From the IMG/VR virus record IMGVR_UViG_3300031134_000466: a DNA stretch of 64,000 nucleotides; one strand, given 5' to 3'. A program made the position numbers and the translations under genes. Below the pieces are notes generated by a model. It ran no database searches and had not been told where the DNA came from. It saw only the letters and a list, made by a program, of their open reading frames with translations. The stretch comes from a virus. Lineage: Duplodnaviria; Heunggongvirae; Uroviricota; Caudoviricetes. Below, piece by piece: positions 2,847 to 63,158 of this stretch. The stretch's first letter is position 1. Every line of letters begins with the position of its first letter.

Positions 2847-4235
2847 ATGCTTACCCTGAATAAGGTTTTGCAGTCCTCCAAAGCTGCTATTGACTTAGCT
2901 TCCATTATGGTTGGTGTCATCATCATTGGTTTAATCGGTGGAGTCATCTCAGCAACAGTTTTTGCTGTTATCCCTTGGTCCCAGGACAAAGCAGCAAAAC
3001 AGCAGTTAGAATCAATTCACACAGCTGAGAACGCTTTCTACGGCTTTAGTGCTGATGCGTCGACTACGCTGAAAAATAAAACAAACAGCACCCGCGAACT
3101 CAGGAATACATTTGCCGATTCAGCTGAACTGGCTTCCAACGCACTCCTGACATCAAACCCTAACTATTGTGTTGTACCTACTGCTGATGGCAAAGACTAT
3201 CACGCTTATTCAAAGTCTGGTTCAGGTAAGACTTTCTATGCTTTGAACAGCAACAAGCAAGCACAAGTTTTCACAGGCGCTTTCCCCTGTGTCGTTGACG
3301 CCTCTACTGGTGTTGTGGGTGTCGACCCAGCTGTAGACAACGGAACCTCCCCTGTAGGTGTTACTCCAGGAAGCACTGGCGGAACAGGTGGCGGAACAAC
3401 TGCACCTGGCACTGGTTCTGGTGGCACTGGCGGAGGAACAACTCCTACGGCTCCTGTGAATCCTCTTGCTTTGACCATCAACTGCCCTGCAAATATCAAT
3501 AAATATGCAACCCCAACAATTGATTTTGTCGGTAAAGCCCTTCTCAGCGATGGAGTAGAAAAAACTTACACGTCTCCTTCTAACCCAATTTTTGATGTCA
3601 CCCCAGGCAAAACTTACACTATTCAGATGACTGGTACTTACAGTCAGATGAGCAGTATTAGTGTAGCCAGTGCCCCTTGCTTGGTAAGTGTCGATTCATG
3701 GGGAGATACTTCTAAGTTCAACAACATCGCAAACGGTTTTTACGGTTCTACTAACTTAGTATCAGTTCCAGATACATTACCTCCGCTTATTACTACTTTA
3801 GCAAACACCTTTTACGGGGCAACTAAGTTCAACAGTCCCAACGTATCCAAATGGGACACCAGTAACGTAACAAAGATGAACAACACTTTCCGAGAAAATA
3901 CTGTGTTCAACCAAGATTTGAGCAAGTGGAACACCAGTAACGTAACAGATATGGTTGGTATGTTCTGGTTAGCTAATGCTTTCAATAGCAACATTAGTTC
4001 ATGGGACACCAGTAAAGTGACTGATATGTTTGCAATGTTCTACAAAGTGACATCGTTCAACCAAGACATCAGTGGATGGAACACCGTCAATGTGACTCGT
4101 ATGGCATCTATGTTTGATGGGGCTAAAGCTTTCAAGCAAAACCTGAGTGGATGGAATGTAGCGAAAGTTACAAATTATTCCAGCTTCAATACGAACGGCT
4201 TGTTGGTTGCAGCTGAACTTCCTAAGTTCAAGTAA
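2847..4235 (+). CDS. Membrane-anchored surface protein, paralogue B, with C-terminal DUF285/BspA-like repeats
   Basis: Same N-terminal anchor as 1636; Gly/Thr linker; at least 5 tandem repeats FNQDLSKWNTSNVTDMxxMF matching the DUF285 consensus. Confidence 0.75.
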   Translation: MLTLNKVLQSSKAAIDLASIMVGVIIIGLIGGVISATVFAVIPWSQDKAAKQQLESIHTAENAFYGFSADASTTLKNKTNSTRELRNTFADSAELASNALLTSNPNYCVVPTADGKDYHAYSKSGSGKTFYALNSNKQAQVFTGAFPCVVDASTGVVGVDPAVDNGTSPVGVTPGSTGGTGGGTTAPGTGSGGTGGGTTPTAPVNPLALTINCPANINKYATPTIDFVGKALLSDGVEKTYTSPSNPIFDVTPGKTYTIQMTGTYSQMSSISVASAPCLVSVDSWGDTSKFNNIANGFYGSTNLVSVPDTLPPLITTLANTFYGATKFNSPNVSKWDTSNVTKMNNTFRENTVFNQDLSKWNTSNVTDMVGMFWLANAFNSNISSWDTSKVTDMFAMFYKVTSFNQDISGWNTVNVTRMASMFDGAKAFKQNLSGWNVAKVTNYSSFNTNGLLVAAELPKFK

Positions 4236-18429: not shown

Positions 18430-21147
18430 ATGGCCACCCTCATCGGCGTATCAGGAAAAATTGCGTCAGGTAAAGATTACTTGACTGACAAGCTTGTAAA
18501 CGAACTGAAACGTCTTGGTTTTACCATCGACTACACAGCCTTCGCTGCACCCCTGAAGCAGGAACTCAACGAAATCATCTCTCTGATTCGAGCTTTCCCT
18601 GAACAGGATGAACTGACTCTTTCTTTCTCCATCGCTCGTAATCTGGACATCAACTACGATGATGCTCTTCTGATTGCTACTAATCTGAGAACAGAAGTGC
18701 TTGCAGATGAAACTCTCAACGGTTACTCACGAACAGTCAAAATTCGTGAATCTCTTCAGTATCTTGGTACAGAGATTCGCAGGAAGCAGCGTCCTGAATA
18801 CTGGACTGACTTGTTCTTGAACTTCGTCAACAATTCAGAAACAGATTTCATTTTCGTTTCAGATGCACGTTTTCCTAATGAAATGGACACGGTTGTCGAC
18901 AATCAAGGTGTTGCTCTACGTCTTGACATTCCAGAAGAAGTTCTTGCAGAGCGTCGAAACAAGCGTGACGGCATCAAATACACTGATGAGCAGTTGAATC
19001 ATATCTCAGAAACTGCACTGGATGATTACACCAAATTTGACATGATGATTGGTGTGCAGTTCAACGAACGTGAAATCGTAGAGAATATCCTGAAAAAAGT
19101 TGAACGACTTCAGGAACTTCCTGCAAAAGCTTCTCGCGTCCTGAAAGCCAAAATCGCAGAGCATACACCTTCAGTGTCAGATAAGAAAGATGTTTACCCA
19201 GAGGTGAATTTACCTGAAGGCCAGTACAAAGTGTTGTCTTTGTTTGCAGGTGCAGGTGGATTAGATTTAGGTTTTGAGTTAGCTGGATTAGAAGCAGTTC
19301 ACGGTAAAGAAAAAGTGGACGCTGCTTACAAAGACAAAAAAGCATTTGACGAGCTCCGCAAAGAGAACCTCATTCACACGGTCTACGTAAATGACAACTT
19401 CAAAGATGCAATAGCTTCCTACCGTCAGAACTTTCCTGAAACGTTTATTGACGAACGAGATATCAAAAAAATCAGCAGCTTCCCTGATGCAGACCTTCTG
19501 TTAGGTGGATTCCCTTGCTTCCCTAAAGGAACAGGTGTAGCTACAGAGACAGGTTACAAAAACATTGAAGATGTCGAGAAAGGTGATTTTGTTCTCACTC
19601 ATGAAGGTCGTTACCGTGAAGTAACAGACACCATGACACGCAATGTGAACAAATCAGCCACTCTACATGCTTACGGTTCTCTTCCTTTGGTCTCAACGGT
19701 GAATCATCCTTACTGGGTGAAAGAAACTGTCGATTCTGAACCTAAATGGGTTCATGCTGAGAACATTCAGCCAGGTTGGTTTGTGTCTCATCCAATCAGC
19801 ACATTCAGTACAGATGAAGTAACCGAAAAAGAAGCCAAGTTTGCTTACTTAGCCGGCGTCTTCGCTCAGTGTGGTACAAAAACTTTGAACGACGAGCACA
19901 AGCCAAGCTATCTCACTCCTTACAATGATGAGGAGTTCCTGGCTTTGCTGGCTGAAATTGATGCTGTCTGTTCAAAAGAAGGCAAAAACGTCATCGTCCA
20001 CAGTGAACAGCTGAACAAGATGATGAAATTGTTCGGAACTACCAAATGGAACAAAGTCATTCCTGAAGAGGTCCACCAGAAACCACGAGCTTGGCAGAAA
20101 GCTTTCCTTGACGGCTTCCTGTTCCACAACTCTGACCAGGAAGTGCACAGCAAGAACTTGGCTGTTGGCGTGGCTCGAATTATTCGTAGTTTGAACCCTA
20201 CACAGGATGTTATCGTGTCCTCACCCAAATACAGTTCCTGGATTGTAACTGCAACTGACACTACCGTAGCTCATCATGATGACAACTATGTATGGGTTCC
20301 TGTGGAGCGTTTGCAAGTAAGAAACGAAATGGGAGTACTTCCTGTTTACGATATTACTGTAGCCGAAGACGAATCATTCGTAGCAGATGGATTTGTAGTT
20401 CACAACTGCCCTGGCTTCTCAGCAGCAGGTCTTCGCATGTTAGATGACCCTCGCAACTTCCTGTACCTGCATTTCGTACGAGCTGTTGTTGACGCTCAAC
20501 CAAAGATTTTCGTAGCAGAAAACGTAAAAGGTCTACTCACTCATGGTCAAGGTGAAGCTTTCAACCAGATAGTCGAAGACTTTGCAGCAGCAGGTTACAC
20601 CATCTACTACAAGCTGATGAAAGCAATTCAGCATGGTGTACCTCAGATGAGAGAGCGATTGATTATTGTTGGTGTGCGAAACGACATTGATTTTGAATAC
20701 CAGCATCCTGCTGCCACTCATGGTGAAGGTCTACTTCCATACAAAACTCAAAGAGACGCTTTCTACGATTTGAGGGACCTGAACGATGAACACTACGAAG
20801 GAGACTTCTCTTCTCGCTACCGTTCCAGAAGGTTCAAACTGGACTGGGATGTACCGTCAAAGACCATTTTGGCAACAGGGCGGCACCTGCCTTTGCACCC
20901 TGACGGAGTGCCTCAGGAGAAGCTGGAGCAGGACTTGTGGAGTTTAGACGCTGCAGACCGTAGATTCACTGTAAGAGAAGCTGCACGAATCCAGACATTC
21001 CCTGACTGGTATGATTTCGTGACAACCTCTCGCGGAACAACCAACACAGTCCTGGAGAAACAGTACCGTCAGATAGGTAACGCTGTTCCTGTCGAACTGG
21101 GACGAGTTGTTGCTGAACCTATTGTTCAGTTCCTGAAAAGTCTGTAA
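18430..21147 (+). CDS. dNMP-kinase-like P-loop domain fused to a C5-cytosine DNA methyltransferase interrupted by an intein
   Basis: GKIASGKD P-loop; MTase motif I FAGAGG, motif IV GGFP|C...N|CPGFSAAG split by the intein, motif VI ENV, motif VIII QHGVPQMRER, motif X GNAVP. Confidence 0.85.
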   Translation: MATLIGVSGKIASGKDYLTDKLVNELKRLGFTIDYTAFAAPLKQELNEIISLIRAFPEQDELTLSFSIARNLDINYDDALLIATNLRTEVLADETLNGYSRTVKIRESLQYLGTEIRRKQRPEYWTDLFLNFVNNSETDFIFVSDARFPNEMDTVVDNQGVALRLDIPEEVLAERRNKRDGIKYTDEQLNHISETALDDYTKFDMMIGVQFNEREIVENILKKVERLQELPAKASRVLKAKIAEHTPSVSDKKDVYPEVNLPEGQYKVLSLFAGAGGLDLGFELAGLEAVHGKEKVDAAYKDKKAFDELRKENLIHTVYVNDNFKDAIASYRQNFPETFIDERDIKKISSFPDADLLLGGFPCFPKGTGVATETGYKNIEDVEKGDFVLTHEGRYREVTDTMTRNVNKSATLHAYGSLPLVSTVNHPYWVKETVDSEPKWVHAENIQPGWFVSHPISTFSTDEVTEKEAKFAYLAGVFAQCGTKTLNDEHKPSYLTPYNDEEFLALLAEIDAVCSKEGKNVIVHSEQLNKMMKLFGTTKWNKVIPEEVHQKPRAWQKAFLDGFLFHNSDQEVHSKNLAVGVARIIRSLNPTQDVIVSSPKYSSWIVTATDTTVAHHDDNYVWVPVERLQVRNEMGVLPVYDITVAEDESFVADGFVVHNCPGFSAAGLRMLDDPRNFLYLHFVRAVVDAQPKIFVAENVKGLLTHGQGEAFNQIVEDFAAAGYTIYYKLMKAIQHGVPQMRERLIIVGVRNDIDFEYQHPAATHGEGLLPYKTQRDAFYDLRDLNDEHYEGDFSSRYRSRRFKLDWDVPSKTILATGRHLPLHPDGVPQEKLEQDLWSLDAADRRFTVREAARIQTFPDWYDFVTTSRGTTNTVLEKQYRQIGNAVPVELGRVVAEPIVQFLKSL
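19516..20406 (+). mobile_element. Intein (297 aa, Cys1 ... His-Asn, +1 Cys) inserted at the catalytic Cys of MTase motif IV
   Basis: N-terminal splicing block CFPKGTGVATETG...GDFVLTHEG; C-terminal VVHN followed by extein Cys; removal restores GGFPCPGFSAAG; degenerate LAGLIDADG-like blocks (YLAGVF, FLDGFLF). Confidence 0.8.
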
Positions 21148-26371: not shown

Positions 26372-27676
26372 ATGGGAAAAATCATTGAAGAGACAATGCT
26401 TGTCATGGTTGACACAAAGAACAACAACAACAAGTTCTACCATGTCACATTGGATGATGCTAACGTCGTCACCAAGCGCTGGGGACGTGTAGGAGCTGAA
26501 GGAGCGAGTTCCGTCGAGACAACAGGCAAGATTGGTTACGAGCGAGCCATCAAGTCCAAAGAGAAAAAGGGCTACAAGGTCTCACCTATTGTTAGCACAG
26601 GTGTCACAGTCAAGAGTTCTGTCAACCACCTTGACGAAGTAGCTAAGAAGTTTCTGTCCAAGGACAGCGGAGACAGCCTTATCAGCAACCTCATTGACCG
26701 ACTCATCGCATCAAACCAGCACCAGATTATGGAGCAGTCCGGTGGTATGATTAAGATTACCGACGACGGAACCGTAAAGACCGCTCTCGGTGTTGTTGAC
26801 CTTTGCTCCATCAACTCTGCCCGAGACCTCATTGGTGAGATGCAGAAGAAGAAAACAGGGCAGACCAAGCTCCTGGAAGATTACCTCACCCTCATTCCTC
26901 AGAACATTGGGTACCGTCGTGGTTGGGAAGAGGACTTCCTGAAGACGGAAAACTTTGCCAAGCAGATGGACTTCTTGAAGCAGCTTGAGGATTCTGTGCA
27001 GTGGCGAAACACCACCGCACAGGTCACCACAGATGACGAAGACAAGTTCGACATCGATGCTCACAAAGACCTGTTCCGCATGAACCTTGCGAAGATTTCC
27101 GACAGCGGAAAAGACTTCGACCGTATCAACAAGATGTTTAAAGAAACACGCAACAACATGCACACATCACGTAACCTCAAACTTGTGAACGTGTATGCAG
27201 TGGAAGATGTCAAGGGCAAGGAAGCTTACGAAGCTGCTCAGAAGAAGTATGGAAACGTACGTGAACTCTGGCACGGAACAAAAGCCTCCAATGTTCTCTC
27301 CATTCTCACAAAGGGATTGTTCGTGCCTAACGCAGGTAGCGGTATCCCTGTGACAGGAAGAATGTTCGGTGATGGTGTCTACTTCAGTGACCAGAGCACC
27401 AAAAGCTTGAACTACGCCAACGGTTACTGGGATGGTTCACGCACCAGCCAGAACTGTTTCATGCTTCTGAACGATGTTGTCATGGGTCATGAGTACCGCC
27501 CTCAGCGTTGGGACTACAGCTCTCTCCGTCAGGCACACAAGGGCGTTGGAACTTCAGGTAAGCCTTACCAGTCCATCAGCGTTCGTGGTGGAACCTGTAA
27601 CGTTCGAAACAACGAAATGATTATTTGGAACACTGACCAGGTGGCTGTACGTTACCTCTGCGAATTTGGTAGCTAA
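26372..27676 (+). CDS. Poly(ADP-ribose) polymerase: WGR domain, helical domain and PARP catalytic domain
   Basis: WGR motif KRWGRVG; catalytic H-G-T, GDGVYFSD, KSLNYA and NNEMIIW aligning to the PARP1 HGS / Y / catalytic-Glu region. Confidence 0.85.
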   Translation: MGKIIEETMLVMVDTKNNNNKFYHVTLDDANVVTKRWGRVGAEGASSVETTGKIGYERAIKSKEKKGYKVSPIVSTGVTVKSSVNHLDEVAKKFLSKDSGDSLISNLIDRLIASNQHQIMEQSGGMIKITDDGTVKTALGVVDLCSINSARDLIGEMQKKKTGQTKLLEDYLTLIPQNIGYRRGWEEDFLKTENFAKQMDFLKQLEDSVQWRNTTAQVTTDDEDKFDIDAHKDLFRMNLAKISDSGKDFDRINKMFKETRNNMHTSRNLKLVNVYAVEDVKGKEAYEAAQKKYGNVRELWHGTKASNVLSILTKGLFVPNAGSGIPVTGRMFGDGVYFSDQSTKSLNYANGYWDGSRTSQNCFMLLNDVVMGHEYRPQRWDYSSLRQAHKGVGTSGKPYQSISVRGGTCNVRNNEMIIWNTDQVAVRYLCEFGS

Positions 27677-39327: not shown

Positions 39328-40449
39328 TCAGTCAGCAGTTTTTCCGTTCAAGTTCCAGAATGGCTTCTCAAACTCAGGCTGAATCATTTTCCAGATGATG
39401 TCAGAGATTTTCTTCTCAGACCTGGTATCAAAATGACCTCCGCTGTGACGAGAGAATAACAAACCAGTAATGCGTTTGTCTTCTTTCTGTACAGCTGCAG
39501 CGTAGTCCTTCTGAGTGTATCCTTCAGGAAGTTCAGAAAGAATACGGTTGTAAGTTTCCTCAACTGTTGCACGCAATTCAGCATGCTCTGCAAGTAGTCG
39601 GTCACGAGTTGTTTCGACATACTCAACGAACTCATCAGGGAGACCAACAATCCATGAAGTGAAGTCACCGTCAGCTACAAGCAGCTCCCAGATGCGACGC
39701 GAAGAAGCACCTGTGATGACACGGTGAAGCTGAACGTAGTCATCCTGTTTCACTTTCACTCGAACATCACTATCCAGGAAGTGAACAACAACGCCTTCTT
39801 TGTTCTCACGACCAGGAGCGGCCAAAGCTTCAGTAAGGCTGTTGTATTCAAACTGCTCAACCTTCAACCAAGTCCATTCATCAACCTGTGATGCTGGTAC
39901 AGAGCGACCTGTTGCTGTGTTCACTCGGGCAATCAAGATGAGGTCATCCAAATCACCGTAGTTAACAACGATACGGTTTGTAGGGTAGATGATTTCCCAG
40001 ATGTAAGTTTCACCAGCAAGTGGCTCCCATTTTCCGTCGTACAGCTCCTGGTAACGTGCTGTGGCATGCAGAGCCTGCTCAGAGCTGAATGAACCTCGTG
40101 TGGAGATGTTCAGTCGACCAGTTTCAGGGTTTACATATGAAACACCCATAGAACCATCTGCTTTGTCTGTGACAACGATAGGTCCAGTCAGTGCATCCTG
40201 AGGAACATCTGGTTCGCCGTGGTTAAAGAACTTACCAAGAGGGCGGGAGACAATCTCCTGGGTGGAACCGTCAACGATAAGTCCTCGTGAAGCTAATGTT
40301 GCAGCGTTCCAGGCTCGGTCAAACTGGCATACCTGTGAGTAGTCAAAGATAGCCAGGTCAAGCGTAGGGTGAACCTGACGATTGATGTGCTTGTTCTGGA
40401 ATTCAGCTGCCCAAAGTTCAGCAGGAGCGATATCGTAAATGTGTACCAT
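39328..40449 (-). CDS. ATP-dependent RNA ligase, paralogue 1
   Basis: Nucleotidyltransferase motif I VTDKADGSMG (KxDG); shared block LASRGLIVDG...RPLGKFFNHGEPDVP with the ligase at 54122. Confidence 0.75.
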   Translation of the reverse strand: MVHIYDIAPAELWAAEFQNKHINRQVHPTLDLAIFDYSQVCQFDRAWNAATLASRGLIVDGSTQEIVSRPLGKFFNHGEPDVPQDALTGPIVVTDKADGSMGVSYVNPETGRLNISTRGSFSSEQALHATARYQELYDGKWEPLAGETYIWEIIYPTNRIVVNYGDLDDLILIARVNTATGRSVPASQVDEWTWLKVEQFEYNSLTEALAAPGRENKEGVVVHFLDSDVRVKVKQDDYVQLHRVITGASSRRIWELLVADGDFTSWIVGLPDEFVEYVETTRDRLLAEHAELRATVEETYNRILSELPEGYTQKDYAAAVQKEDKRITGLLFSRHSGGHFDTRSEKKISDIIWKMIQPEFEKPFWNLNGKTAD

Positions 40450-42792: not shown

Positions 42793-44685
<1,893 letters not shown>

Positions 44686-54121: not shown

Positions 54122-55363
54122 ATGTCAACTACAAGAAAACCTCCTTATCATCACAGCGATGGTACAAACTGCTGGACTAAAGATTGTTCGATCAGAGGCC
54201 GTGAAGATACAGAAAAAGCTGCTTTCTTCAAGCAAGTAGAAACAGCTGCTGAGACTGTTGTTCCAACCAATGAATTGCCTCCTCTGTCAGCTTTTCAGAA
54301 AGCCTATGATGATGGTCGCATTGAGTGCAGCCGCCACCCTGAACATCCTTATGTGACTTACAAGTATTCCAGAACAACTCAGTTTGCTTCTGACTGGGAT
54401 GATGTGACCTTAGCGTCTCGTGGTGTCATCTTCAATGAGGAGACAGGCGAGATTGTTGCTCGTCCATTTGCTAAGTTCTTCAACCATAACGAACCGTCAG
54501 TTCCCAGAGACAAATTACATGGCCGTATTAGTGTAACTGACAAGCTGGACGGTTCTTTAGGAATTGGTTATGTTGATGAGAACGGTAAGTTCAACATTGC
54601 AACCTCTGGAAGCTTTATCTCTGAACAGGCAAAACGTTCTACAGAGCTCTATCATGAGCGTTATGAAGGCAACTGGAAGCCAAATCCTAAGTTGACCTAC
54701 ATGTGGGAAATCATCTACCCAGAAAATCGTGTCGTGGTCAACTATGGCGATGAAGATGACTTGCATCTCATCGGTGCTGTCAACAAACGAACTGGTAAAT
54801 CAGTTCCGTTGCGTGACATCAAAGAATGGAAGTGGAAAAGAGCTGAAGAGTACAAAGACTTCTCCTCCTTGGATGCTGTTCTTCACTCTCCTGAAAGAGA
54901 AAACCGTGAAGGTTTCATTGTTCATTACATCGATACTGATACCCGCGTGAAATACAAGCATGCAGATTATCTTGAGCTCCATCGTAACCGTACTGGCGTG
55001 ACTTCCAAAACTATCTGGCGTAAAATGCGTATGGGTGAAGATATGGCAGGTTGGAAAGAGAACATGCCTGAAGAGTTCAGTGAGTTCGTATCCACTCGTC
55101 AAGCTAAAATCACTGCCGGATATAACAAAGAAATTGCCCAAATTACTGATGAGCATGGCACTTTCAAAGCAACTCTTCCTGCTGGTTATGACCGTAAGAC
55201 TTTTGCTACCACTTTGAAAAACTCACCTCTTGTACCAGCCGAAAACAAAGCTTTCGTCATGAACCTTGAGTTCAACGGCAGTGCTGTTGGAAGTGTTGTT
55301 CAATCTCATAAGATTTGGGACCGTGTGAAACCTGAGGACGAGAACACCTTGTGGAACATGTAA
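54122..55363 (+). CDS. ATP-dependent RNA ligase, paralogue 2
   Basis: VTDKLDGSLG motif I; paralogous to the ligase at 39328. Confidence 0.75.
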   Translation: MSTTRKPPYHHSDGTNCWTKDCSIRGREDTEKAAFFKQVETAAETVVPTNELPPLSAFQKAYDDGRIECSRHPEHPYVTYKYSRTTQFASDWDDVTLASRGVIFNEETGEIVARPFAKFFNHNEPSVPRDKLHGRISVTDKLDGSLGIGYVDENGKFNIATSGSFISEQAKRSTELYHERYEGNWKPNPKLTYMWEIIYPENRVVVNYGDEDDLHLIGAVNKRTGKSVPLRDIKEWKWKRAEEYKDFSSLDAVLHSPERENREGFIVHYIDTDTRVKYKHADYLELHRNRTGVTSKTIWRKMRMGEDMAGWKENMPEEFSEFVSTRQAKITAGYNKEIAQITDEHGTFKATLPAGYDRKTFATTLKNSPLVPAENKAFVMNLEFNGSAVGSVVQSHKIWDRVKPEDENTLWNM

Positions 55364-55652: not shown

Positions 55653-55746
55653 CTTGGACCTCCTAATTTTAAATCGGCTGATTATTTTACGAATTGTACT
55701 GTAATTATAGTCATTCTGACGATAAAGATGGTATGATTAGGATGTT

Positions 55747-56412
55747 ATGAAGAACACATACGGAATTCTCGGCGGATATGGGGCGGTAGCCACCCTACAT
55801 CTCCAGCAGCTGCTCGTGAAGCGAGTCCTCAGCACTGGACAGTACGCTGATATTGCCTTCCCTCGTATGGTAATTTCCAATCTGCCTGAAGACATCATCA
55901 ATGCTGAAGGACATATCAGCAGCCTTGGTAGCCTGCGGACTGAACTTGGTAAAACAGCTCCTCTATTCCAAGGAGCCACAGATGTTTATGTCATTTGTAA
56001 CACCTTCCATGTCGAAGAAGAGTTCATGCAGCGAGTCTTCGCTAACAAACTACATTCTGTTCCGGCTTTAACCAGTCAAGCTGTCGTAGATGCTGGATAC
56101 TCCAAACCTCTTATCGTAGGTTCCAAGCTGACTTCTCAGGATAACCTGTACAGTCATACAGCTTACACCTCAACTAACATGTTTGCGGATGAGCTAATCA
56201 CTGCTGGAATGAAGTACCAGACATCTCACTCTCAGCTGGCAGATGTCATAGCTGCTGCCAAACAGGCTAGCTCAGACTGCATTGTTTTAGGTTGCACAGA
56301 TTTGTCCGTGATGGCTGACACTCTCCGAACCATGACTGCACTTCCCGTAATCGACTCCGTTGAAGCAGTCGCCAACCATATTTACAACTCCCATACGAAA
56401 GATGAATCGTGA
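55747..56412 (+). CDS. Asp/Glu/hydantoin racemase superfamily protein (aspartate-racemase-like)
   Basis: GILGGYGAVAT, catalytic VICNTFH and VLGCTDL, PVIDSVE. Confidence 0.7.
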   Translation: MKNTYGILGGYGAVATLHLQQLLVKRVLSTGQYADIAFPRMVISNLPEDIINAEGHISSLGSLRTELGKTAPLFQGATDVYVICNTFHVEEEFMQRVFANKLHSVPALTSQAVVDAGYSKPLIVGSKLTSQDNLYSHTAYTSTNMFADELITAGMKYQTSHSQLADVIAAAKQASSDCIVLGCTDLSVMADTLRTMTALPVIDSVEAVANHIYNSHTKDES

Positions 56413-57374
56413 AAGTCTACAACGACACAGTAACCATGACTGCAGAGCTGGCTCAGACCTTAGAGCAATTGAGAGCTGTGCGGGCTTTTGACGCTACAGA
56501 ATGGATTGAGCGTAAGGTTGTCCTAATCAACCAGTACTTCGCTCAGAACAAGCTCTCAGGGGCTGTAGTAGGTGTTTCTGGTGGCATCGACTCAGCTGTA
56601 GCCCTTTCACTTCTTGTCAAAGCATCCCAGCAAGACAACAGCCCAATTCAGAAGATTGTCCCTCTTCTACTTCCTGCTCTTTCTTACGAAGGTGCAACTA
56701 ACCAAGACGGGGCAGTTCAGCAGGCTACTGACCTATGCCAGAACCTTGGACTGAAGCCAGCTGTTTTCACTAAGCTCACATCTCTTTCCCAAGTGATTAC
56801 TTCTGAACTGGAAGACATTCTGGACATCAAATCAACAGACTGGGCTAAAGGACAGCTAGTGGCTTACACCAGAACCCCAGTCCTGTACAACACCTGCTCA
56901 ATCCTTACTGACGCCGGCTACCCTGCACTGGTTGTAGGAACCACAAACCTTTCCGAAGGTGGATACCTCGGTTATGTCGGAAAAGCTTCAGATGGTATGG
57001 TTGACCTGCAAGTAATTTCTGATTTGTACAAGTCAGAAGTGTACAAAGTCGCAGCTTTACTTGAAGTTCCTGAAAGCGTTATGAAAGCTACTCCTACAGG
57101 GGACATGTACGACGGTCGTGAAGATGAAACAGTTTTCGGAGCTTCTTACGACTTCGTAGAGCTGTTTCATCTATGGCTACAGGCACGCAGCGTCCCATTG
57201 AAACTTCTTCGAGATGCCCACTTTGTCACAGGAGCTAAAAACCTGCAAAAACTGCACGACTACAACGCACATAAGTACACCTACGGAACTCCATCCATTC
57301 ACCTGGACATTATGAACGCAGCAATCCCAAACGGATGGAACAATCAGCCTTGGAGGCCCCAGAATGGCAACTAA
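56409..57374 (+). CDS. NAD synthetase-like PP-loop ATP pyrophosphatase (divergent NadE)
   Basis: VGVSGGIDSAV PP-loop; NadE-like length; ATGA overlap with the upstream gene. Confidence 0.65.
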   Translation: MKVYNDTVTMTAELAQTLEQLRAVRAFDATEWIERKVVLINQYFAQNKLSGAVVGVSGGIDSAVALSLLVKASQQDNSPIQKIVPLLLPALSYEGATNQDGAVQQATDLCQNLGLKPAVFTKLTSLSQVITSELEDILDIKSTDWAKGQLVAYTRTPVLYNTCSILTDAGYPALVVGTTNLSEGGYLGYVGKASDGMVDLQVISDLYKSEVYKVAALLEVPESVMKATPTGDMYDGREDETVFGASYDFVELFHLWLQARSVPLKLLRDAHFVTGAKNLQKLHDYNAHKYTYGTPSIHLDIMNAAIPNGWNNQPWRPQNGN

Positions 57375-58104
57375 ATTCGTAAACCAAGTCAACTTCGAAA
57401 TCCCTACTGTTGCTCACACAGTTCAAGTGAGACCGTTCCCTGAACTTGACCGTACAGCGGTAGTGATTCCTGAACTCGTCCCTGCCGAGGAAAAAGTCAG
57501 TATCATGGCAGCGTTGGAAGACTCCAACTGGCAGCCAGTGTCAGTGACAGGAATGTCAGGAAACTGGAAAGAAGGTGACCCTATTGGTTCTTACCGTGCT
57601 TCCAACTACACTCCTGAGTATGCTGAAGTTCTGTGGAACAGAATCAAACACGGTTTCCCTACTGTACGCACATTCACAGATGCTGATAACACCGACTTCG
57701 ATGGTCATGAGCTGTGGGAACCCATTGGCGTGTCACCTCTTCTTCGATTCATCAAATATGAAGAAGGCGGCTGGCTTGTAGTTCATTACGATGCTCCGTA
57801 TGTCGAATCAGAAGATGTTCGCACACTCCAAAGCCTTGTCGTATATCTGGAACACCCAGGTGAACTTCACGGAGGAGCAACCCGCTACCTTCATGACCCT
57901 CAGGCTCATCTTCCTGTTACTCAGCGTGAACTCAACGACGAATACCGTGCTGCTGAAGAAGATGAAGTGAGACTCCGCTTCGCTCCTGAAGATGGAACAG
58001 CTGTAGTCTTCGACCACCGCCTTCTGCATGACGCTGAAAAGGTCACAGGAACTGGCACAAAAACAATCATTCGAACAGACATTATGTACAGGAAAGTACG
58101 ATGA
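57364..58104 (+). CDS. 2OG-Fe(II) oxygenase family protein
   Basis: H-x-D (HYDAPY) and distal His (RLLHDAE) facial triad. Confidence 0.55.
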   Translation: MATKFVNQVNFEIPTVAHTVQVRPFPELDRTAVVIPELVPAEEKVSIMAALEDSNWQPVSVTGMSGNWKEGDPIGSYRASNYTPEYAEVLWNRIKHGFPTVRTFTDADNTDFDGHELWEPIGVSPLLRFIKYEEGGWLVVHYDAPYVESEDVRTLQSLVVYLEHPGELHGGATRYLHDPQAHLPVTQRELNDEYRAAEEDEVRLRFAPEDGTAVVFDHRLLHDAEKVTGTGTKTIIRTDIMYRKVR

Positions 58105-59624
58105 ATTTAGACAGATACTTCCAGGCTCTTTACGAAAGAACCAATAGTAAGCAGGACTTAGTAACAGCAGGTTGGATTGAAAACAAGCCGCTACGCATCA
58201 ACCCGCATGTGCGATTCTACACAACCCCTCTGCAAGCTATTCGTGACGCGGGCAAAAAGGACGTATCTGTCTTGTTCTACCCTGGTTGTTTCGCTCCAGT
58301 CCATGAAGGTCACCTTGGGGCTATGAGGCTGGCCAAAGAAGCAATTGAAACCCAGACAGGCGAGACTGTAGCTGCAGGCTATTTCACCCCTGACCATGAT
58401 AACTACATCATGCGTAAAACTCATGACGAACGTTTCATCGCACCTAACCGCATCGCTCTTCTCCATGAAGCAGTAGAAAATGAACCCTGGATGCAGGTGG
58501 ACGACTGGGCTTCACTGTACGCTCCCACTGATTTGAACTTCACAACACTATATGACAGGTTCAACCTTTACCTGAAGCGTTGGTTACCTGACTTGAACAT
58601 CAAGCTGTACATGGTTTTTGGTGGAGACAACTACATGTTTGCGAACAGTTTCACTGAATACGGACACGGTGTTTGTGTGCCAAGAGAAGGAGCTCAGATG
58701 GACTTGAGCTTAGTTCACCCTGATGCCAAAAAGCGGGTTATTTTCAGCGAAAAAGTCTGTACAGACCATTCTTCTACAGCTGCACGAGCAGCAAACCCTG
58801 GAGCTATCGATATCCACGGCAGAAGTGCATTAGGTTCCACCTATGTACTTCGTGAAGACTTGGACTTAGCTTTCCGAGAGAACCCTACTACTTACTCGAA
58901 CAAAATTATTGCTGACTCTGTAGCTATTCTTTTGCAGGCGCATGTGCCGTACGAGAAAGTCAAAGTGAAAAGAGTTCCCATTATCAGGCAGATGGCTAAC
59001 CATACTGAGACAGAGAATGTGATTTCCTTAGACTGTTTCTGGAAAGCAGAGCAGAACCTTGAAATTTCTCGCCTGTTTTCAACTGGAGGCAGTCAGCACC
59101 ATGCCATCAAATACGTCAACCGTCCTGGCTCGCCGGCTCTTCAAGAGCAGGTAGAAGCAATTCCTGCTGGAGTGTACACTCTCGTAGATGATGACATTGC
59201 TACTGGGGAGACAATGAGTTTTGTTTCCAACATGCTGGAAACGCACGATGTTGTTGTTGATAAGCAGGACAGCCTGATTTCCGAGCTGGGTTCTGACTTG
59301 TACGATGTAGTTGATTTGCGAGACTTTGTTCTTGGAACCGAACACGGCGGACTGACGGTTGCAACTCCTACAGGAGAAACGACAAGAATGCCTTACATCG
59401 CTCCTTATGTGAATCTTGTAAGCCGTGCTCGCATTAACCCTGACCGGGTGTTCAGTTTCTCCACCGAACTGTGGAAATTGAACTATGCACTTTACCGTAA
59501 TACGAAAACTACAGTAGGTGACATCAAAGAACATCAGGACTTCACCATGTTCGGTTTTGCCGAAGACATGACAGTGGCTGACTTGTGCCAAAAGCATCTT
59601 CAATTGATGACTGAATTGCAGTAA
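58101..59624 (+). CDS. Bifunctional protein: NMN/NaMN adenylyltransferase-like domain fused to a type-I phosphoribosyltransferase (Prs/PRT-like) domain
   Basis: N-terminal GCFAPVHEGH (HxGH nucleotidyltransferase motif); C-terminal PRPP-binding loop VYTLVDDDIATGETM. Confidence 0.65.
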   Translation: MNLDRYFQALYERTNSKQDLVTAGWIENKPLRINPHVRFYTTPLQAIRDAGKKDVSVLFYPGCFAPVHEGHLGAMRLAKEAIETQTGETVAAGYFTPDHDNYIMRKTHDERFIAPNRIALLHEAVENEPWMQVDDWASLYAPTDLNFTTLYDRFNLYLKRWLPDLNIKLYMVFGGDNYMFANSFTEYGHGVCVPREGAQMDLSLVHPDAKKRVIFSEKVCTDHSSTAARAANPGAIDIHGRSALGSTYVLREDLDLAFRENPTTYSNKIIADSVAILLQAHVPYEKVKVKRVPIIRQMANHTETENVISLDCFWKAEQNLEISRLFSTGGSQHHAIKYVNRPGSPALQEQVEAIPAGVYTLVDDDIATGETMSFVSNMLETHDVVVDKQDSLISELGSDLYDVVDLRDFVLGTEHGGLTVATPTGETTRMPYIAPYVNLVSRARINPDRVFSFSTELWKLNYALYRNTKTTVGDIKEHQDFTMFGFAEDMTVADLCQKHLQLMTELQ

Positions 59625-59641
59625 GATGATAGACATGATGC

Positions 59642-60238
59642 ATGCTTGAAATACTTACAGCGGTAGGTCTTGCTTTAGCGGCAGGGTTGAACGCTTACAT
59701 TCCTCTGATTGCTGTCAGTTTGTTATCAAAGTTCACTGATTTTTTCACTCTTCCAGGAAACTGGTCATGGATGGAAGACAACTGGACATTAGCGATCTTG
59801 ATTGCTTTAGCTTTAGTAGAGTTCTTTGCTGACAAAATAGCTGCAGTTGACTCGTTGAATGATGTCATCCAAACAGCAGTCCGTCCAACATCAGGCGGAT
59901 TGCTGTTTGCTGCAGGTACCCATGTAACAGATGTTCCTGTGACTCAGATTAGTAATTTTGTGAGTTCTCCAGGCTTTCCTATGTTCATCATTGGTTTGAC
60001 TGTTGCTTTGCTTCCTCATTTGATGAAGATGTTCATCAGGCCGCTTATTAACGCAACGATGAGTGGAATGGTGACACCCATTGTCAGTTTTGGTGAAAAC
60101 ATTCTTACAGTAGGTTTGGTTGCTATGGCTATATTCATTCCAGTGCTGGTACCAGTAGCAGTAATACTGGTCATTGTTATAGGAGTACGGATTTTCCGAA
60201 ACCTCACCGCGAAAAAGAGTAAAACAGCAACAGCCTGA
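59642..60238 (+). CDS. Polytopic membrane protein (DUF4126-like)
   Basis: 4-5 TM helices. Confidence 0.45.
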   Translation: MLEILTAVGLALAAGLNAYIPLIAVSLLSKFTDFFTLPGNWSWMEDNWTLAILIALALVEFFADKIAAVDSLNDVIQTAVRPTSGGLLFAAGTHVTDVPVTQISNFVSSPGFPMFIIGLTVALLPHLMKMFIRPLINATMSGMVTPIVSFGENILTVGLVAMAIFIPVLVPVAVILVIVIGVRIFRNLTAKKSKTATA

Positions 60239-60330: not shown

Positions 60331-61548
60331 ATGGTGCAAAAACCAGAACGCGGGCGTTACTTAGAGCTTGAAGGTGTACGTGTTTCGTATAAACACAAAG
60401 ATGATTCCATCCACCTCACAGCAACAGACCCAGATGTTCCTCAGATAAACATCACCCTAAACAAAGGGACAGCGACAGAAGATTCGCTTAGAGATTTGCT
60501 CGTAGAGTACGGTTTAATTAGAGAATCAGAGTCTAATGCTGTTACCGAAATGGAACCTATCCCATATTACGCGGGTAACCCATTCTCAGCATTGCTGGCA
60601 GAATCACATATCCCGTCAGACAGAGCCAAGAACATTCTTCTTACAGGACAGCCAGGTTCAGGTAAAACCGTGGCCGCATCCTATGCAGCATTTCTTGCAC
60701 AAGGAATGAACATGCCTACTTTCGTCATGGGGCTTGCAGTTGACTATCTGAAAACGCTCAATGAAGACACCCAGGTTCTGATGCTGACAAAAATGGAATC
60801 AGGCTACCTGAATCCATTCAAAACAAAAATGTCAACAGAGCAGATTCTTCACTTTATCAACACTTTGACACTTCCAAGAGATGCTTACTATCAAGCACGA
60901 GCAAACCAGACGATAACAACACTCATCAAACAACAGTATGAAACTAAGCAGCCTTCATTGACTGGACTGCTACAAGTAATCAGCAAGTATGAAGAACTCC
61001 AATATGAAACAGCTGCTCTTTCCCATTTGGGTCTTAGCCCTGTAGGAGCTCCATTCTTTGGATACTCAGAGAACGTATTAGTGATTGATCCTGACAAGGA
61101 TTATGTCTTTGATGCCGCTGAAGTTCCGCTTGTAGCACCAGTAGAAGCATTGGACACTACTCAGGCAAGACAGAACACTGCAATCATTCAAGCAGTGTTC
61201 CATTTTGTTAGACAGCATTCACGACCAAGTAGTCAACCAAAAATGCTGATTGTCGACGGGAGGAATTACCAGTATGTTACTGAACTGAACCAGCTCAGTA
61301 GGTTAGCCCGAAGCCTAAATTTGGTTATGCTCACAGTAGGTGAACTTGAAGAAAATAACAGTCAATACTCTGACTTCATGGCTTACCGCTCTTCAACCGC
61401 AGAGACATCTGAACTTTTTGGTAAAAGGCTTGACACGCTTTCTTCAGGTCAATCTTATTGGAGAAACGAAGACGGAGAGGTCTTCTTTGTCCCTCGACCT
61501 ACCCTTCCAGCATCGTTTGCAAGAATTTTTGACACAATACCCAGATAA
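60331..61548 (+). CDS. P-loop NTPase of unknown function
   Basis: Walker A LLTGQPGSGKTV; Walker-B-like MLIVDG. Confidence 0.55.
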   Translation: MVQKPERGRYLELEGVRVSYKHKDDSIHLTATDPDVPQINITLNKGTATEDSLRDLLVEYGLIRESESNAVTEMEPIPYYAGNPFSALLAESHIPSDRAKNILLTGQPGSGKTVAASYAAFLAQGMNMPTFVMGLAVDYLKTLNEDTQVLMLTKMESGYLNPFKTKMSTEQILHFINTLTLPRDAYYQARANQTITTLIKQQYETKQPSLTGLLQVISKYEELQYETAALSHLGLSPVGAPFFGYSENVLVIDPDKDYVFDAAEVPLVAPVEALDTTQARQNTAIIQAVFHFVRQHSRPSSQPKMLIVDGRNYQYVTELNQLSRLARSLNLVMLTVGELEENNSQYSDFMAYRSSTAETSELFGKRLDTLSSGQSYWRNEDGEVFFVPRPTLPASFARIFDTIPR

Positions 61549-62238: not shown

Positions 62239-62312
62239 TCACAAAAACGTGCTTTTTCGTCAATATGACGATATACTGTAATAAGAATGGTCTAAGGAAG
62301 GAAACCCGTATC

Positions 62313-63158
62313 ATGACCAAGCTCCAGAAACAGATTATTAACACTCTTGGGGTAAAACCCGTCATCAATGCCGAACAGGAGCTACGCACTCGTGTAGATT
62401 TCCTCAAAGACTTCACCCGTAATGCTGGCACCAGAGGATTTGTACTTGGAATCAGTGGTGGACAGGACTCTGCTCTTGCCGGCTACATTGCACAGACAGC
62501 TGTCCGTGAACTCCGCGACGAGACGGGTGAGAACTACCAGTTCTTAGCTCTTCTTCTTCCTTACGGGACTCAGAAAGACGCTGATGATGCAATCACCATC
62601 GCCCGTGACTTCATCAAGGCTGACCAGGTAATTGAGTACAACATCAAGCCTGCAGTGGATGCTTTCACTGACCAGTACAATGACATCGCTGGCTGGTCAG
62701 GCGATGAAGCTGATAACCTCAGCGATTACCATAAAGGTAACGTCAAAGCCCGCACCCGTGCCGTAACACAGTACGCTTACGCTGGTACCCATCAGCTGCT
62801 TGTTGTAGGTACAGACCATGCTGCTGAGGCAGTATCAGGCTTCTTCACCAAGTTCGGTGACGGTGCAGCTGACGTTCTCCCTTTGAGCGGTTTGAACAAA
62901 CGTCAGGGCAAAGAGCTTCTTCGCTTGGCAGGTGCTCCCGAGTTCGTCATCACCAAAGCTCCCACAGCGGACCTTCTGGACAACAAAGCAGGTCAGGCTG
63001 ATGAGACTGAGCTGGGTATTACATACGATGTTCTTGACGACTACCTTGAAGGTAAAGATGTCAATGTAGTTGCAGCTCAGAAAATTGAACTGCGTTACCT
63101 GATGACAGAACACAAGCGTCAACTCCCAGTTGACCCTGCAGCAACATGGTGGAAGTGA
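62313..63158 (+). CDS. nadE: NH3-dependent NAD+ synthetase
   Basis: [15 protein letters not shown]-loop; close to B. subtilis NadE along its whole length; AAGGAAGGAAA SD. Confidence 0.9.

Follow-up and report, generated by a model that had tools for sequence, protein, structure and literature searches.

An adenylyltransferase fused to a divergent phosphoribosyltransferase-like domain is the signature gene of a widespread NAD-related module

Analysis of a 64,000-nucleotide stretch of DNA recorded as a virus of the class Caudoviricetes (IMG/VR record IMGVR_UViG_3300031134_000466; here named the window) revealed a 507-amino-acid protein in which an NAD-building adenylyltransferase is joined to a very divergent phosphoribosyltransferase-like (PRT-like) domain. 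The fusion marks an NAD-related module that is widespread in bacteria and giant phages, has apparently not been described before, and also includes a NadE-like amidoligase and an oxygenase or radical-SAM enzyme. Few parts of metabolism have been mapped as thoroughly as NAD biosynthesis, and the reconstitution of NAD+ by phages (NARP1 to NARP3) is a recent major theme of counter-defense. The module would extend both areas with more than 1,000 clusters, an occurrence that reaches from gut Clostridia to giant phages, a PRT-like domain that is not of type II, a dedicated NadE paralog, and an obligatory oxygenase or radical-SAM step. In the literature open to searching, we found no account of the NMNAT/PRT-like architecture or of the module, and an earlier computational mention is possible. 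The features of the window that are considered here are listed in Table 1.

Table 1. Genes, domains, and motifs of the module and its surroundings (positions refer to the window)
Feature	Position	Strand	Remarks
Asp/Glu-racemase-superfamily protein	55747..56412	+	PF01177; first gene of apparent operon; accessory
NadE-like PP-loop amidoligase, distinct NAD synthetase paralog	56409..57374	+	PF02540, 110 bits
2OG-Fe(II) oxygenase	57364..58104	+	PF13640 and PhyH matches
NMNAT + PRT-like fusion	58101..59624	+	507 aa; open reading frame and translation
NMN/NaMN adenylyltransferase domain	58275..58790	+	residues 59-230
GxFxPxHxGH motif	58284-58313	+	within NMNAT domain
SSTxxR motif	58770-58787	+	within NMNAT domain
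Divergent type-I-PRT-like domain	58833..59621	+	residues about 245-507
PRPP/ribose-5-phosphate loop	59172-59216	+	within PRT-like domain
DUF4126 membrane protein	59642..60238	+	PF13548, E 7e-45; directly downstream of fusion
Canonical NH3-dependent NAD synthetase (second NadE)	62265..63158	+	NF001979, 347 bits vs cut-off 250

A sequence-only reading of the window had proposed that a single protein combines an NMNAT with a type-I PRT, and this was confirmed by HMM searches, by the predicted fold, and by 44 full-length homologs of the open reading frame. The AF2 model of the entire protein reached a pLDDT of 90.3 and a pTM of 0.89. Domain-wise HMM searches placed PF01467 on the N terminus, with Pfam silent on the C terminus, and structure prediction gave the C-terminal domain a PRT-like rather than an unrelated fold. 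The motif in question is short and Pfam models leave the C-terminal 260 residues uncovered, which would be in keeping with an artifact: the C terminus could be an unrelated extension whose PRPP-loop-like motif arose by chance, or a sequencing error could have merged two genes. This explanation was discarded as extremely improbable, since the PRT-like fold is confident, the motif is invariant, and the fusion is kept in hundreds of clusters from unrelated samples.

The N-terminal domain matched PF01467 (E = 1.2e-8; 35.7 bits, above the cut-off of 21) and fell below the cut-off of the equivalog model TIGR00482 (E = 1.8e-9; 37.9 versus 112.45). PDB sequence matches of the fusion protein were to NMNAT1/3. 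All 28 Foldseek matches of the N-terminal domain in the PDB at E ≤ 1e-3 were NMNAT1/3, fungal NMNAT, or bacterial NadD, and the fold is nearest to NMNAT/NadD rather than to PPAT, GCT, or FADS. The (H/T)xGH motif is present in the first Rossmann loop as GCFAPVHEGH (residues 62 to 71), with G62, F64, P66, H68, G70, and H71 invariant across 31 homologs. Likewise, the SxxxxR (ISSTxxR) motif is present as HSSTAARA (residues 223 to 230), with S225 and R229 invariant. PF01467, Foldseek, and the invariant (H/T)xGH motif thus bear out the original assignment as an NMNAT; the two HMM scores place it as divergent within the NadD/NMNAT clade rather than as an equivalog.

The C-terminal domain folds confidently (pLDDT 93.5), and its model shows the five-stranded PRT core. 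Its PRPP loop, YTLVDDDIATGET, comprises a hydrophobic strand and two acidic residues followed by (T/S)Gx(T/S); the pattern of the domain is (D/E)DDxx(T/S)GxT. Among 183 representatives, D364 and D365 are conserved in 100%, T/S368 and T/S371 in 99%, and G369 in 98%. The model fold and the almost invariant loop therefore uphold the earlier claim that the core resembles type-I PRTs and carries a canonical PRPP/ribose-5-phosphate loop. Furthermore, a set of five arginines and four aspartates is 96 to 100% conserved in 183 to 185 diverse representatives, as would be expected of an active site but not of a domain in decay. R341 precedes the PRPP strand and is a candidate loop residue, and the R324 and R341 motifs are 96 to 99% conserved. 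We take SR324xF to resemble the (A/S)RGF motif of APRT, which would make it a candidate element of a PPi-binding or mobile catalytic loop. No match to PF00156, PRTase_2, PRTase_3, or PRTase-CE was obtained on the fusion at E ≤ 0.1. NCBIfam APRT models reached E values of 0.04 to 0.15 at best on this domain, and the family profile weakly matched APRT in the PDB (E = 0.023, 50 residues).

Neither the barrel fold nor the family HMMs of type-II PRTs (NAPRT/NAMPT/QPRT) matched, no Nudix domain was found with PF00293, and no kinase or AAA HMM indicated a P-loop ribosylnicotinamide kinase as in NadR, the C-terminal fold being PRT-like. The protein is therefore not of the NadV/NatV type, in line with the initial view, nor of the NadM-Nudix or NadR type. 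The further suggestion of an Adps/Prs-like domain was not specifically supported: the fusion lacks the Prs N-terminal lobe, a pair of PRT-like lobes, and any Prs Pfam signal, and Prs scored no better than PRTases against the C-terminal domain. A pyrophosphokinase of the Adps/Prs kind, with ADP-ribose or ribose-5-phosphate as its substrate, is one version of a more general alternative, in which the domain is not a base phosphoribosyltransferase and its loop binds a nucleotide or PRPP for another purpose; allosteric control or substrate handover to the NadE-like and oxygenase partners is the other version. We regard this alternative as unlikely, since the near-absolute conservation of the loop, the arginines, and the aspartates suggests catalysis and neither the NMNAT domain nor the NadE-like gene would be needed for an Adps-like step. 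Phage ME3 has a degenerate loop (LYDHDIVNG) in a gene that still adjoins NadE, so the role of the domain, at least in ME3, cannot rest on a canonical PRPP loop, which counts against the leading interpretation given below.

Profile searches yielded 1,167 cluster representatives (50% identity), nearly all of them with the same fusion. They derive from Clostridia, candidate phyla radiation (CPR) bacteria, Myxococcota, Legionella, and viral contigs of 27 to 465 kb. The 1.09-Mb Collierbacteria contig MFAS01000001.1 is one of the carriers of the fusion. The architecture had been described as unusual, which holds in comparison with characterized enzymes but not for metagenomes, where it is abundant. 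Divergent versions were found in the cultured phages Xanthomonas phage X1 (WEM34357) and Acinetobacter phage ME3, and the family is also present in the cultured bacteria Legionella shakespearei DSM 23087 and Paraliomyxa miuraensis SMH-27-4. INPHARED gave nothing by tblastn with the whole protein or by megablast with 14 kb; the C-terminal domain, searched with tblastn at E ≤ 10, matched nothing but plastocyanin, by chance. A short, seemingly stand-alone C-terminal protein (P0045) looks like a broken fusion, as it follows a NadE gene and a 177-amino-acid open reading frame with a gap. The flanking ME3_297 and a 380-amino-acid protein of X1 were considered as split NMNAT or PRT halves and rejected for lack of similarity.

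In the window, the module forms one apparent, translationally coupled operon (55747-59624), in which the oxygenase gene overlaps the NadE-like gene by 11 nucleotides and the fusion gene by 4 nucleotides. The NadE-like protein shares 40 to 51% identity with the proteins that neighbor the fusion in 40 of 41 bacterial loci but only 21 to 28% with canonical NadE, and the alignment shows subfamily-specific motifs and a C-terminal extension. Since a canonical NadE is encoded as well (Table 1), the NadE-like paralog is not simply the NadE of this genome. NCBIfam racemase models matched the product of the first gene below cut-off, and racemase-like homologs lie beside the module at six other loci. The only plus-strand promoter-like site ahead of the operon (55708-55737) is weak evidence, given a regional promoter count below shuffle expectation; the scan of the region for promoters and terminators gave counts at or below this expectation. 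The DUF4126 gene is syntenic in three loci (L001 to L003) and absent from the others, and its product is specific to this lineage and may lie outside the module. PADLOC gave no match for the fusion, NadE-like, racemase-like, or DUF4126 proteins and only a generic 2OG match for the oxygenase.

The same genes recur together in other genomes. The decisive context, which had escaped the sequence-only reading, is the obligate NadE-like paralog and the 2OG oxygenase or radical-SAM partner directly upstream of the fusion. In 40 of the 41 bacterial loci, the fusion adjoins a NadE-like gene; among 18 viral loci, 14 have such a gene at a distance of no more than 10 kb. Every one of the 39 bacterial loci that are not truncated encodes exactly one of three unrelated enzymes: a 2OG-Fe(II) oxygenase, a radical-SAM protein of family A, or a RaSEA-like radical-SAM protein. 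Radical-SAM families A and B show no detectable similarity and were therefore kept separate. In 18 bacterial loci, an ortholog of the oxygenase (32 to 43% identity) separates the NadE-like gene from the fusion. Furthermore, in-frame fusions of the 2OG domain occur in Legionella, Paraliomyxa, P0150, P0152, P0177, and P0137, and one protein comprises NadE-like, 2OG, NMNAT, and PRT-like parts in L. shakespearei, P. miuraensis, P0150, P0152, and P0177.

The Preiss-Handler pathway (PncB as NaPRT, NadD as NaMNAT, and NadE) consists of precisely the PRT, NMNAT, and NadE activities that are encoded together here, and an obligate amidoligase implies a carboxylated (deamido) substrate. What is observed is the identity of the domains, the conservation of their motifs, and the linkage and fusion of the genes; from this we infer that PRPP is a substrate, that nicotinate is the base, in which order the steps follow, and that NAD+ is the product. 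Our leading, still tentative interpretation is that the module leads to NAD+ on its own by a deamido (Preiss-Handler-like) route, with the PRT-like domain in place of a type-II NaPRT and with an additional oxidative step. The PRT-like domain would bind PRPP via its intact ribose-5-phosphate loop and form NaMN with a carboxylated pyridine base, most probably nicotinate. The NMNAT domain would then adenylylate NaMN to NaAD, and the NadE-like enzyme would convert the carboxylate of NaAD to the amide, i.e., to NAD+. The 2OG-Fe(II) oxygenase would perform one further obligatory step outside textbook NAD chemistry, and in anaerobes one of the two radical-SAM enzymes would stand in for it. For a very large virus-like genome that also codes for a PARP, the likely benefit is an NAD+ pool that is sustained or rebuilt. 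In the Preiss-Handler pathway, PncB is a type-II PRT, whereas the module has a divergent type-I-like fold fused to the adenylyltransferase and a separate NadE paralog. The pathway also has no counterpart to the oxygenase or radical-SAM enzyme; this partner is obligatory here, yet without a role in the classical pathway, which counts against an NAD+ route.

NAMPT, a NadM-type NMNAT, or canonical NadE occur in the same islands as the module in X1, L039, L050, L004, and the window. Canonical NadE accompanies the NadE-like paralog in the window, L001, L004, and L005; NAMPT and a second NMNAT accompany the fusion in X1 and L050, and NAMPT does so in L039. Hence, the module does not merely duplicate NAD+ synthesis and may have another product. 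Instead of NAD+ itself, this could be a non-canonical pyridine or other heterocycle dinucleotide, such as an NAD analog that is hydroxylated or bears an N-substituted carboxamide, which we consider somewhat unlikely. In this reading, the dinucleotide scaffold would come from the PRT-like and NMNAT domains and an amine would be added by the NadE-like ligase, with tailoring by the oxygenase or radical-SAM enzyme and by the products of lineage-specific GNAT, methyltransferase-like, PLP-decarboxylase, and amidase genes. The apparent non-redundancy with canonical NadE and with NAMPT or a second NMNAT argues for such a product, as do extended clusters that resemble tailoring sets. In Clostridia, a GNAT adjoins the fusion or is fused to it (P0048), and a second radical-SAM protein, an SDR, and a formamidase-family protein are found; the Legionella cluster additionally holds a methyltransferase, PhyH, an ATP-grasp protein, and a CN-hydrolase. 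A family of 255-amino-acid neighbors (16 loci) has no relative in Pfam, NCBIfam, or the PDB and, by eye only, a methyltransferase-like GxG...D...NHxxDD pattern. However, the core consists of three genes only, the tailoring genes being lineage-variable and missing from the window. NrtR-family regulators, which flank the module at five loci, and the nearby NAD salvage genes suggest an ordinary NAD pool, and the presence of the module in minimal-genome CPR bacteria and many phages makes basic cofactor supply likelier than a secondary metabolite.

The third partner enzyme is a close relative of RaSEA of the ArcS-RaSEA system for archaeosine, with 184 bits against TIGR01210, under the equivalog cut-off of 212. 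RaSEA strips the lysine carbon skeleton from an N-substituted intermediate, while the nitrogen stays (PMC11298593). By analogy, the 2OG oxygenase could reach the same net result via oxidative N-dealkylation. Neither ArcS nor a tRNA context is present here; the likeness is one of inferred chemistry, not of membership. It is conceivable, though rather improbable, that the NadE-like ligase joins the nicotinate carboxylate to an organic amine, with the alkyl group then removed oxidatively to leave the primary amide, and that the PRT-like domain is a new class of NaPRT. The donor would be an amino acid or polyamine instead of ammonia, and the nicotinamide amide would be formed in a hitherto unknown way. 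NaMN from the PRT-like domain and NaAD from the NMNAT domain would precede the coupling, and removal of the alkyl group would fall to the 2OG-Fe(II) oxygenase in aerobes and to radical-SAM enzymes in anaerobes. The three mutually exclusive partners would then represent aerobic and anaerobic solutions to a single reaction, and phages could rebuild NAD+ independently of the ammonia or glutamine supply of the host and of type-II PRTs.

Phages are known to rebuild NAD+ with bifunctional proteins in which, as proposed for the fusion, an NMNAT is joined to the enzyme making its mononucleotide, namely NadR and NARP3, the latter consisting of PnuC and a NadR-like protein (PMC13464706). The C terminus of NadR is a P-loop kinase for nicotinamide riboside, whereas that of the fusion is PRT-like, with neither Walker motif, kinase HMM match, nor PnuC. 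NadM-Nudix and the NatV and NadV proteins of KVP40 (NARP2) likewise represent a phage NMNAT with a phosphoribosyltransferase that lead from a pyridine base and PRPP to NAD+. Unlike the module, NARP2 consists of a separate type-II NAMPT and an NMNAT-Nudix fusion and does not need NadE, which is not mentioned in the preprint on NARP1 and NARP2 (bioRxiv 10.1101/2024.02.11.579819). X1 and L050 hold a NARP2-like pair besides the module, so the two are distinct. In NARP1 (Adps and Namat), phages have also recruited a PRT-superfamily fold for NAD+ reconstitution. Adps is a two-lobed Prs homolog that acts on ADP-ribose and is paired with the type-II Namat, whereas the fusion has a single PRT-like core without Prs signal and NMNAT and NadE-like partners.

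If the module makes NAD+, NAD would be formed by a new route or, at the least, a known step would have gained a new class of enzyme, and the module would be a candidate fourth phage NAD+ pathway; a module making an NAD analog would be equally interesting. Since divergent versions exist in cultured phages and cultured bacteria, these possibilities can be tested now. The window also encodes a PARP, and its PHROGs matches are to an RNA ligase and a ribonucleotide reductase only.

The main result of our analysis is the genomic context of the fusion, a 507-amino-acid protein joining an NMNAT to a PRT-like domain, which belongs to a widespread, uncharacterized four-activity module related to NAD. 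The open reading frame is genuine; its start codon overlaps the stop codon of the upstream gene (ATGA), AGGA lies 6 to 10 nt 5' of the start, and the gene model is sound because the alignment with homologs runs from the first residues of the N terminus. Both motifs quoted in the sequence-only reading, GCFAPVHEGH (residues 62 to 71) and VYTLVDDDIATGETM (residues 358 to 372), were confirmed, and its fold call of an NMNAT plus a type I PRT-like domain was correct.

The sole Pfam match of the fusion was PF01467 (cytidylyltransferase-like; residues 59 to 230, E = 1.2e-8, above cut-off). The match to the NCBIfam nadD equivalog TIGR00482 (E = 1.8e-9) fell far short of the cut-off of that model, and PDB sequence matches were eukaryotic NMNATs. 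An AlphaFold model of the full-length protein (pLDDT 90.3, pTM 0.89) was compared to the PDB using Foldseek, and all 28 matches with E≤1e-3 were NMNAT1/3, fungal NMNAT, or bacterial NadD. In addition, neither the HxGH nor the SxxxxR motif varies across the family alignment. The HMM matches, the Foldseek matches, and these motifs place the N-terminal half, as a divergent member, in the clade of pyridine-mononucleotide adenylyltransferases. Identity with NadM-Nudix was ruled out, as the fusion has no Nudix domain, and identity with NadR was excluded by the lack of a P-loop kinase.

For the C-terminal half (residues about 245 to 507), no Pfam model matched at E≤0.1, and NCBIfam and PDB sequence/profile searches gave only marginal APRT signals around the loop. 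Alignment of 186 family representatives to the domain profile revealed residues conserved at 100% (D364, D365, D405, D408, and G417), 99% (R324, T/S368, and T/S371), 98% (G369 and R407), 97% (R442), and 96% (R341 and R429). This near-invariant set is at odds with a decayed domain and suggests an active site that may bind a ribose-5-phosphate moiety and further anionic groups. The earlier proposal of an Adps- or Prs-like activity found no support.

A word-indexed search yielded 44 full-length homologs, down to 30% identity, and searching 1.84 billion representatives with a profile yielded 1,167 matches at E≤1e-3 (530 at E≤1e-30), nearly all of 500 to 640 amino acids with the matched domain at the C terminus. 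Because of this abundance, the architecture, previously regarded as unusual, is so only in comparison to characterized enzymes. Homologs are named "hypothetical protein," "nicotinic acid mononucleotide adenylyltransferase," or "NAD+ synthetase" in the databases, and none of these names recognizes the C-terminal domain. Scanning one genome per species, we found 41 prokaryotic loci in gut Clostridia MAGs, many CPR lineages, Myxococcota (including the isolate Paraliomyxa miuraensis SMH-27-4), Legionella shakespearei DSM 23087, Chthonomonadales, and several proteobacteria. In IMG/VR, 18 viral contigs of 27 to 465 kb carry the fusion.

In the window, the fusion ends a run of four genes that are translationally coupled (see the table). 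A NadE-like gene adjoins it in 40 of the 41 bacterial loci; in tblastn searches with the window proteins, these neighbors show 40 to 51% identity to the window copy and only 21 to 28% to canonical NadE. According to the alignment, they form a separate subfamily with its own motifs and a C-terminal extension. Clustering of all neighboring ORFs at the 41 loci revealed a third enzyme of three kinds: a 2OG oxygenase (18 loci, mainly aerobic lineages), a 291-amino-acid radical-SAM enzyme termed rSAM-A (14 loci, mainly Clostridia), and rSAM-B, a radical-SAM enzyme related to archaeosine RaSEA (7 loci, mainly CPR; 184 bits to TIGR01210, below the cut-off of 212). No similarity was detectable between rSAM-A and rSAM-B. 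Two kinds never occur together among the 41 loci, and the two loci lacking a third enzyme are both truncated or partial. The viral contigs obey the same rule for the third enzyme (2OG oxygenase, 4; rSAM-A, 9; rSAM-B, 1; none within 10 kb, 4).

Features of the window and of selected module loci
Feature	Location	Strand	Remarks
DUF285 protein	2847-4235	+	Mycoplasma-type leucine-rich repeat; 183 bits
905-aa ORF	18430-21147	+	dNMP-kinase-like N terminus, Hint/intein, C5 cytosine DNA methylase (apparently split by the intein)
WGR + PARP catalytic domain protein	26372-27676	+	NAD+-consuming enzyme; 30 kb from NAD module
T4 Rnl1-type RNA ligase	39328-40449	-	
DnaK	42826-44685	+	Full length, Gram-positive type; 829 bits to PDB 6w6e chain I
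T4 Rnl1-type RNA ligase	54122-55363	+	
Racemase-like gene	55747-56412	+	First of four; no junction
NadE-like gene	56409-57374	+	4-nt overlap with racemase-like gene
2OG-Fe(II) oxygenase	57364-58104	+	11-nt overlap with NadE-like gene
Fusion	58101-59624	+	4-nt overlap with 2OG-Fe(II) oxygenase gene
P-loop NTPase	60331-61548	+	405 aa; just downstream of module
GNAT gene, clostridial locus	L004:11626-12108		Directly downstream of fusion
255-320 aa family	L004:16717-17484; L034:5703-6671; L016:20032-20910		Examples
Xanthomonas phage X1 (L064)	OQ427096: 105048-112638		Divergent module
Acinetobacter phage ME3 (L045)	KU935715: 218403-221833		Divergent module

The functional link between the parts of the module is confirmed by gene fusions that join them. 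L. shakespearei encodes NadE-like, 2OG, NMNAT, and PRT-like segments, in this order, in a single ORF of 1,118 amino acids; in Paraliomyxa, all four segments lie within one open frame. Three metagenomic proteins (P0150, P0152, and P0177) combine all four domains, and another (P0137) is a 2OG-NMNAT-PRT-like protein. In the clade of the protein P0048 (705 amino acids, 32 cluster members), a GNAT acetyltransferase is fused C-terminally to the NMNAT-PRT-like protein, and clostridial loci carry a separate GNAT gene immediately downstream of the fusion; both arrangements hint at an amine-bearing intermediate.

Further NAD genes around the module connect it with ordinary NAD metabolism. NrtR-family Nudix proteins flank it at five loci, one of them with PDB 3gz5, which we take to be Shewanella NrtR, as best match (E = 1.7e-21). 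At locus L039, a type II NAMPT lies immediately upstream of the fusion; at the viral locus L050, NAMPT plus a NadM-type NMNAT occupy the position immediately upstream of the module. A glutamine-dependent canonical NadE is present at the clostridial locus L004, and a second, canonical NadE occurs in the window and its relative L001. Divergent modules, annotated as hypothetical proteins, are also present in two cultured jumbo phages, X1 and ME3. The 371-amino-acid X1 protein WEM34357 has an NMNAT-like N terminus (hhalign 95.7%) and a PRT-like C terminus (hhalign 70%) with the loop LLDSDIFTGTT; next to it come a 2OG oxygenase (27% identity to that of the window, E = 5e-17) and NadE, in turn followed by annotated NMNAT and NAMPT. 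In ME3, a stand-alone 212-amino-acid PRT-like protein with a degenerate PRPP loop (BFVD match, E = 4e-8; hhalign 95%) is encoded directly upstream of NadE, and an orthologous 2OG oxygenase (33% identity, E = 4e-29) lies 1.3 kb away. A macro-domain protein and a Ter/PRTase_2/StiP cluster neighbor the ME3 module.

A PRT-type domain, an NMNAT, and an amidoligase of the NAD synthetase family correspond to the three activities of the Preiss-Handler pathway. This leads to the most economical reading of the sequences, in which the module would be a compact nicotinate-to-NAD+ route with the PRT-like domain replacing type II NaPRT; that the amidoligase is obligate implies that an intermediate is carboxylated (deamido). 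The very large, virus-like genome of the window encodes a PARP as well, and such a route would help it to maintain or rebuild NAD+. We classify the module among NAD salvage or reconstitution modules; the fusion matches no component of the phage NAD+ reconstitution pathways NARP1, NARP2, or NARP3 and no known defense or anti-defense model in PADLOC. The fusion would act in the manner of bifunctional salvage enzymes of the NadR type, in which the mononucleotide is formed by one domain and adenylylated by the other, and would do so using a domain family for which there is no curated model. Full-text literature searches, which left out one potentially relevant 2012 comparative-genomics paper, turned up no description of the module.

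Two features, however, are at odds with a plain Preiss-Handler pathway: the oxidative partner is obligatory, and canonical NadE, NAMPT, and a second NMNAT occur alongside the module. Both suggest a modified product or a different amidation chemistry. Since 2OG oxygenases perform oxidative N-dealkylation and RaSEA removes a lysine skeleton, we infer, as an attractive hypothesis, that the NadE-like ligase might couple an organic amine and the oxygenase or radical-SAM partner might trim the product to the primary amide. In the RaSEA reaction, the lysine skeleton is stripped off preQ0-lysine and the amidine nitrogen stays (PMC11298593). Lineage-specific neighbors, namely, a LysA-like PLP decarboxylase, GNAT, and a formamidase-family protein in Clostridia, CN-hydrolase and methyltransferase in Legionella, and the racemase-like gene of the window, would fit a pathway that involves an amine but are no proof of it. 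New chemistry in one of the steps is a realistic prospect; the substrate assignments are predicted, and the cultured phages and bacteria carrying the module make substrate tests feasible. Sixteen module loci (Clostridia, CPR, and Legionella) also encode a family of 255 to 320 amino acids, often next to the RaSEA-like radical-SAM enzyme, that has no relative in Pfam, NCBIfam, or PDB; its conserved VDLxPGxAPK...D...NHxxDD is reminiscent of SAM methyltransferases.

The window genome looks very large and phage-like, with many ORFans, no tRNA genes in the 64-kb window, and no match in INPHARED at the nucleotide level. The fusion gene has its closest relatives on contigs of 828 to 882 kb, assembled repeatedly from different samples; the genome may be that of a megaphage or of an odd small-genome bacterium. 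If viral, it would be larger than any phage genome in the collection (maximum, 735 kb). The window DnaK is 52% identical to that of uncultured phages of 634 to 642 kb. It lacks a segment of about 24 residues present in the other DnaK structures among its PDB matches, presumably from E. coli, whose alignments start at query position 73 and chain position 97. The P-loop NTPase, syntenic in L001, gave only weak, sub-threshold matches (nSTAND3/AAA; PADLOC mad8, E = 3.9e-5). L001 also encodes ClpB. Two T4 Rnl1-type RNA ligase genes lie in this one window, and L001 additionally has PNKP, NucS, and RNase H nearby.
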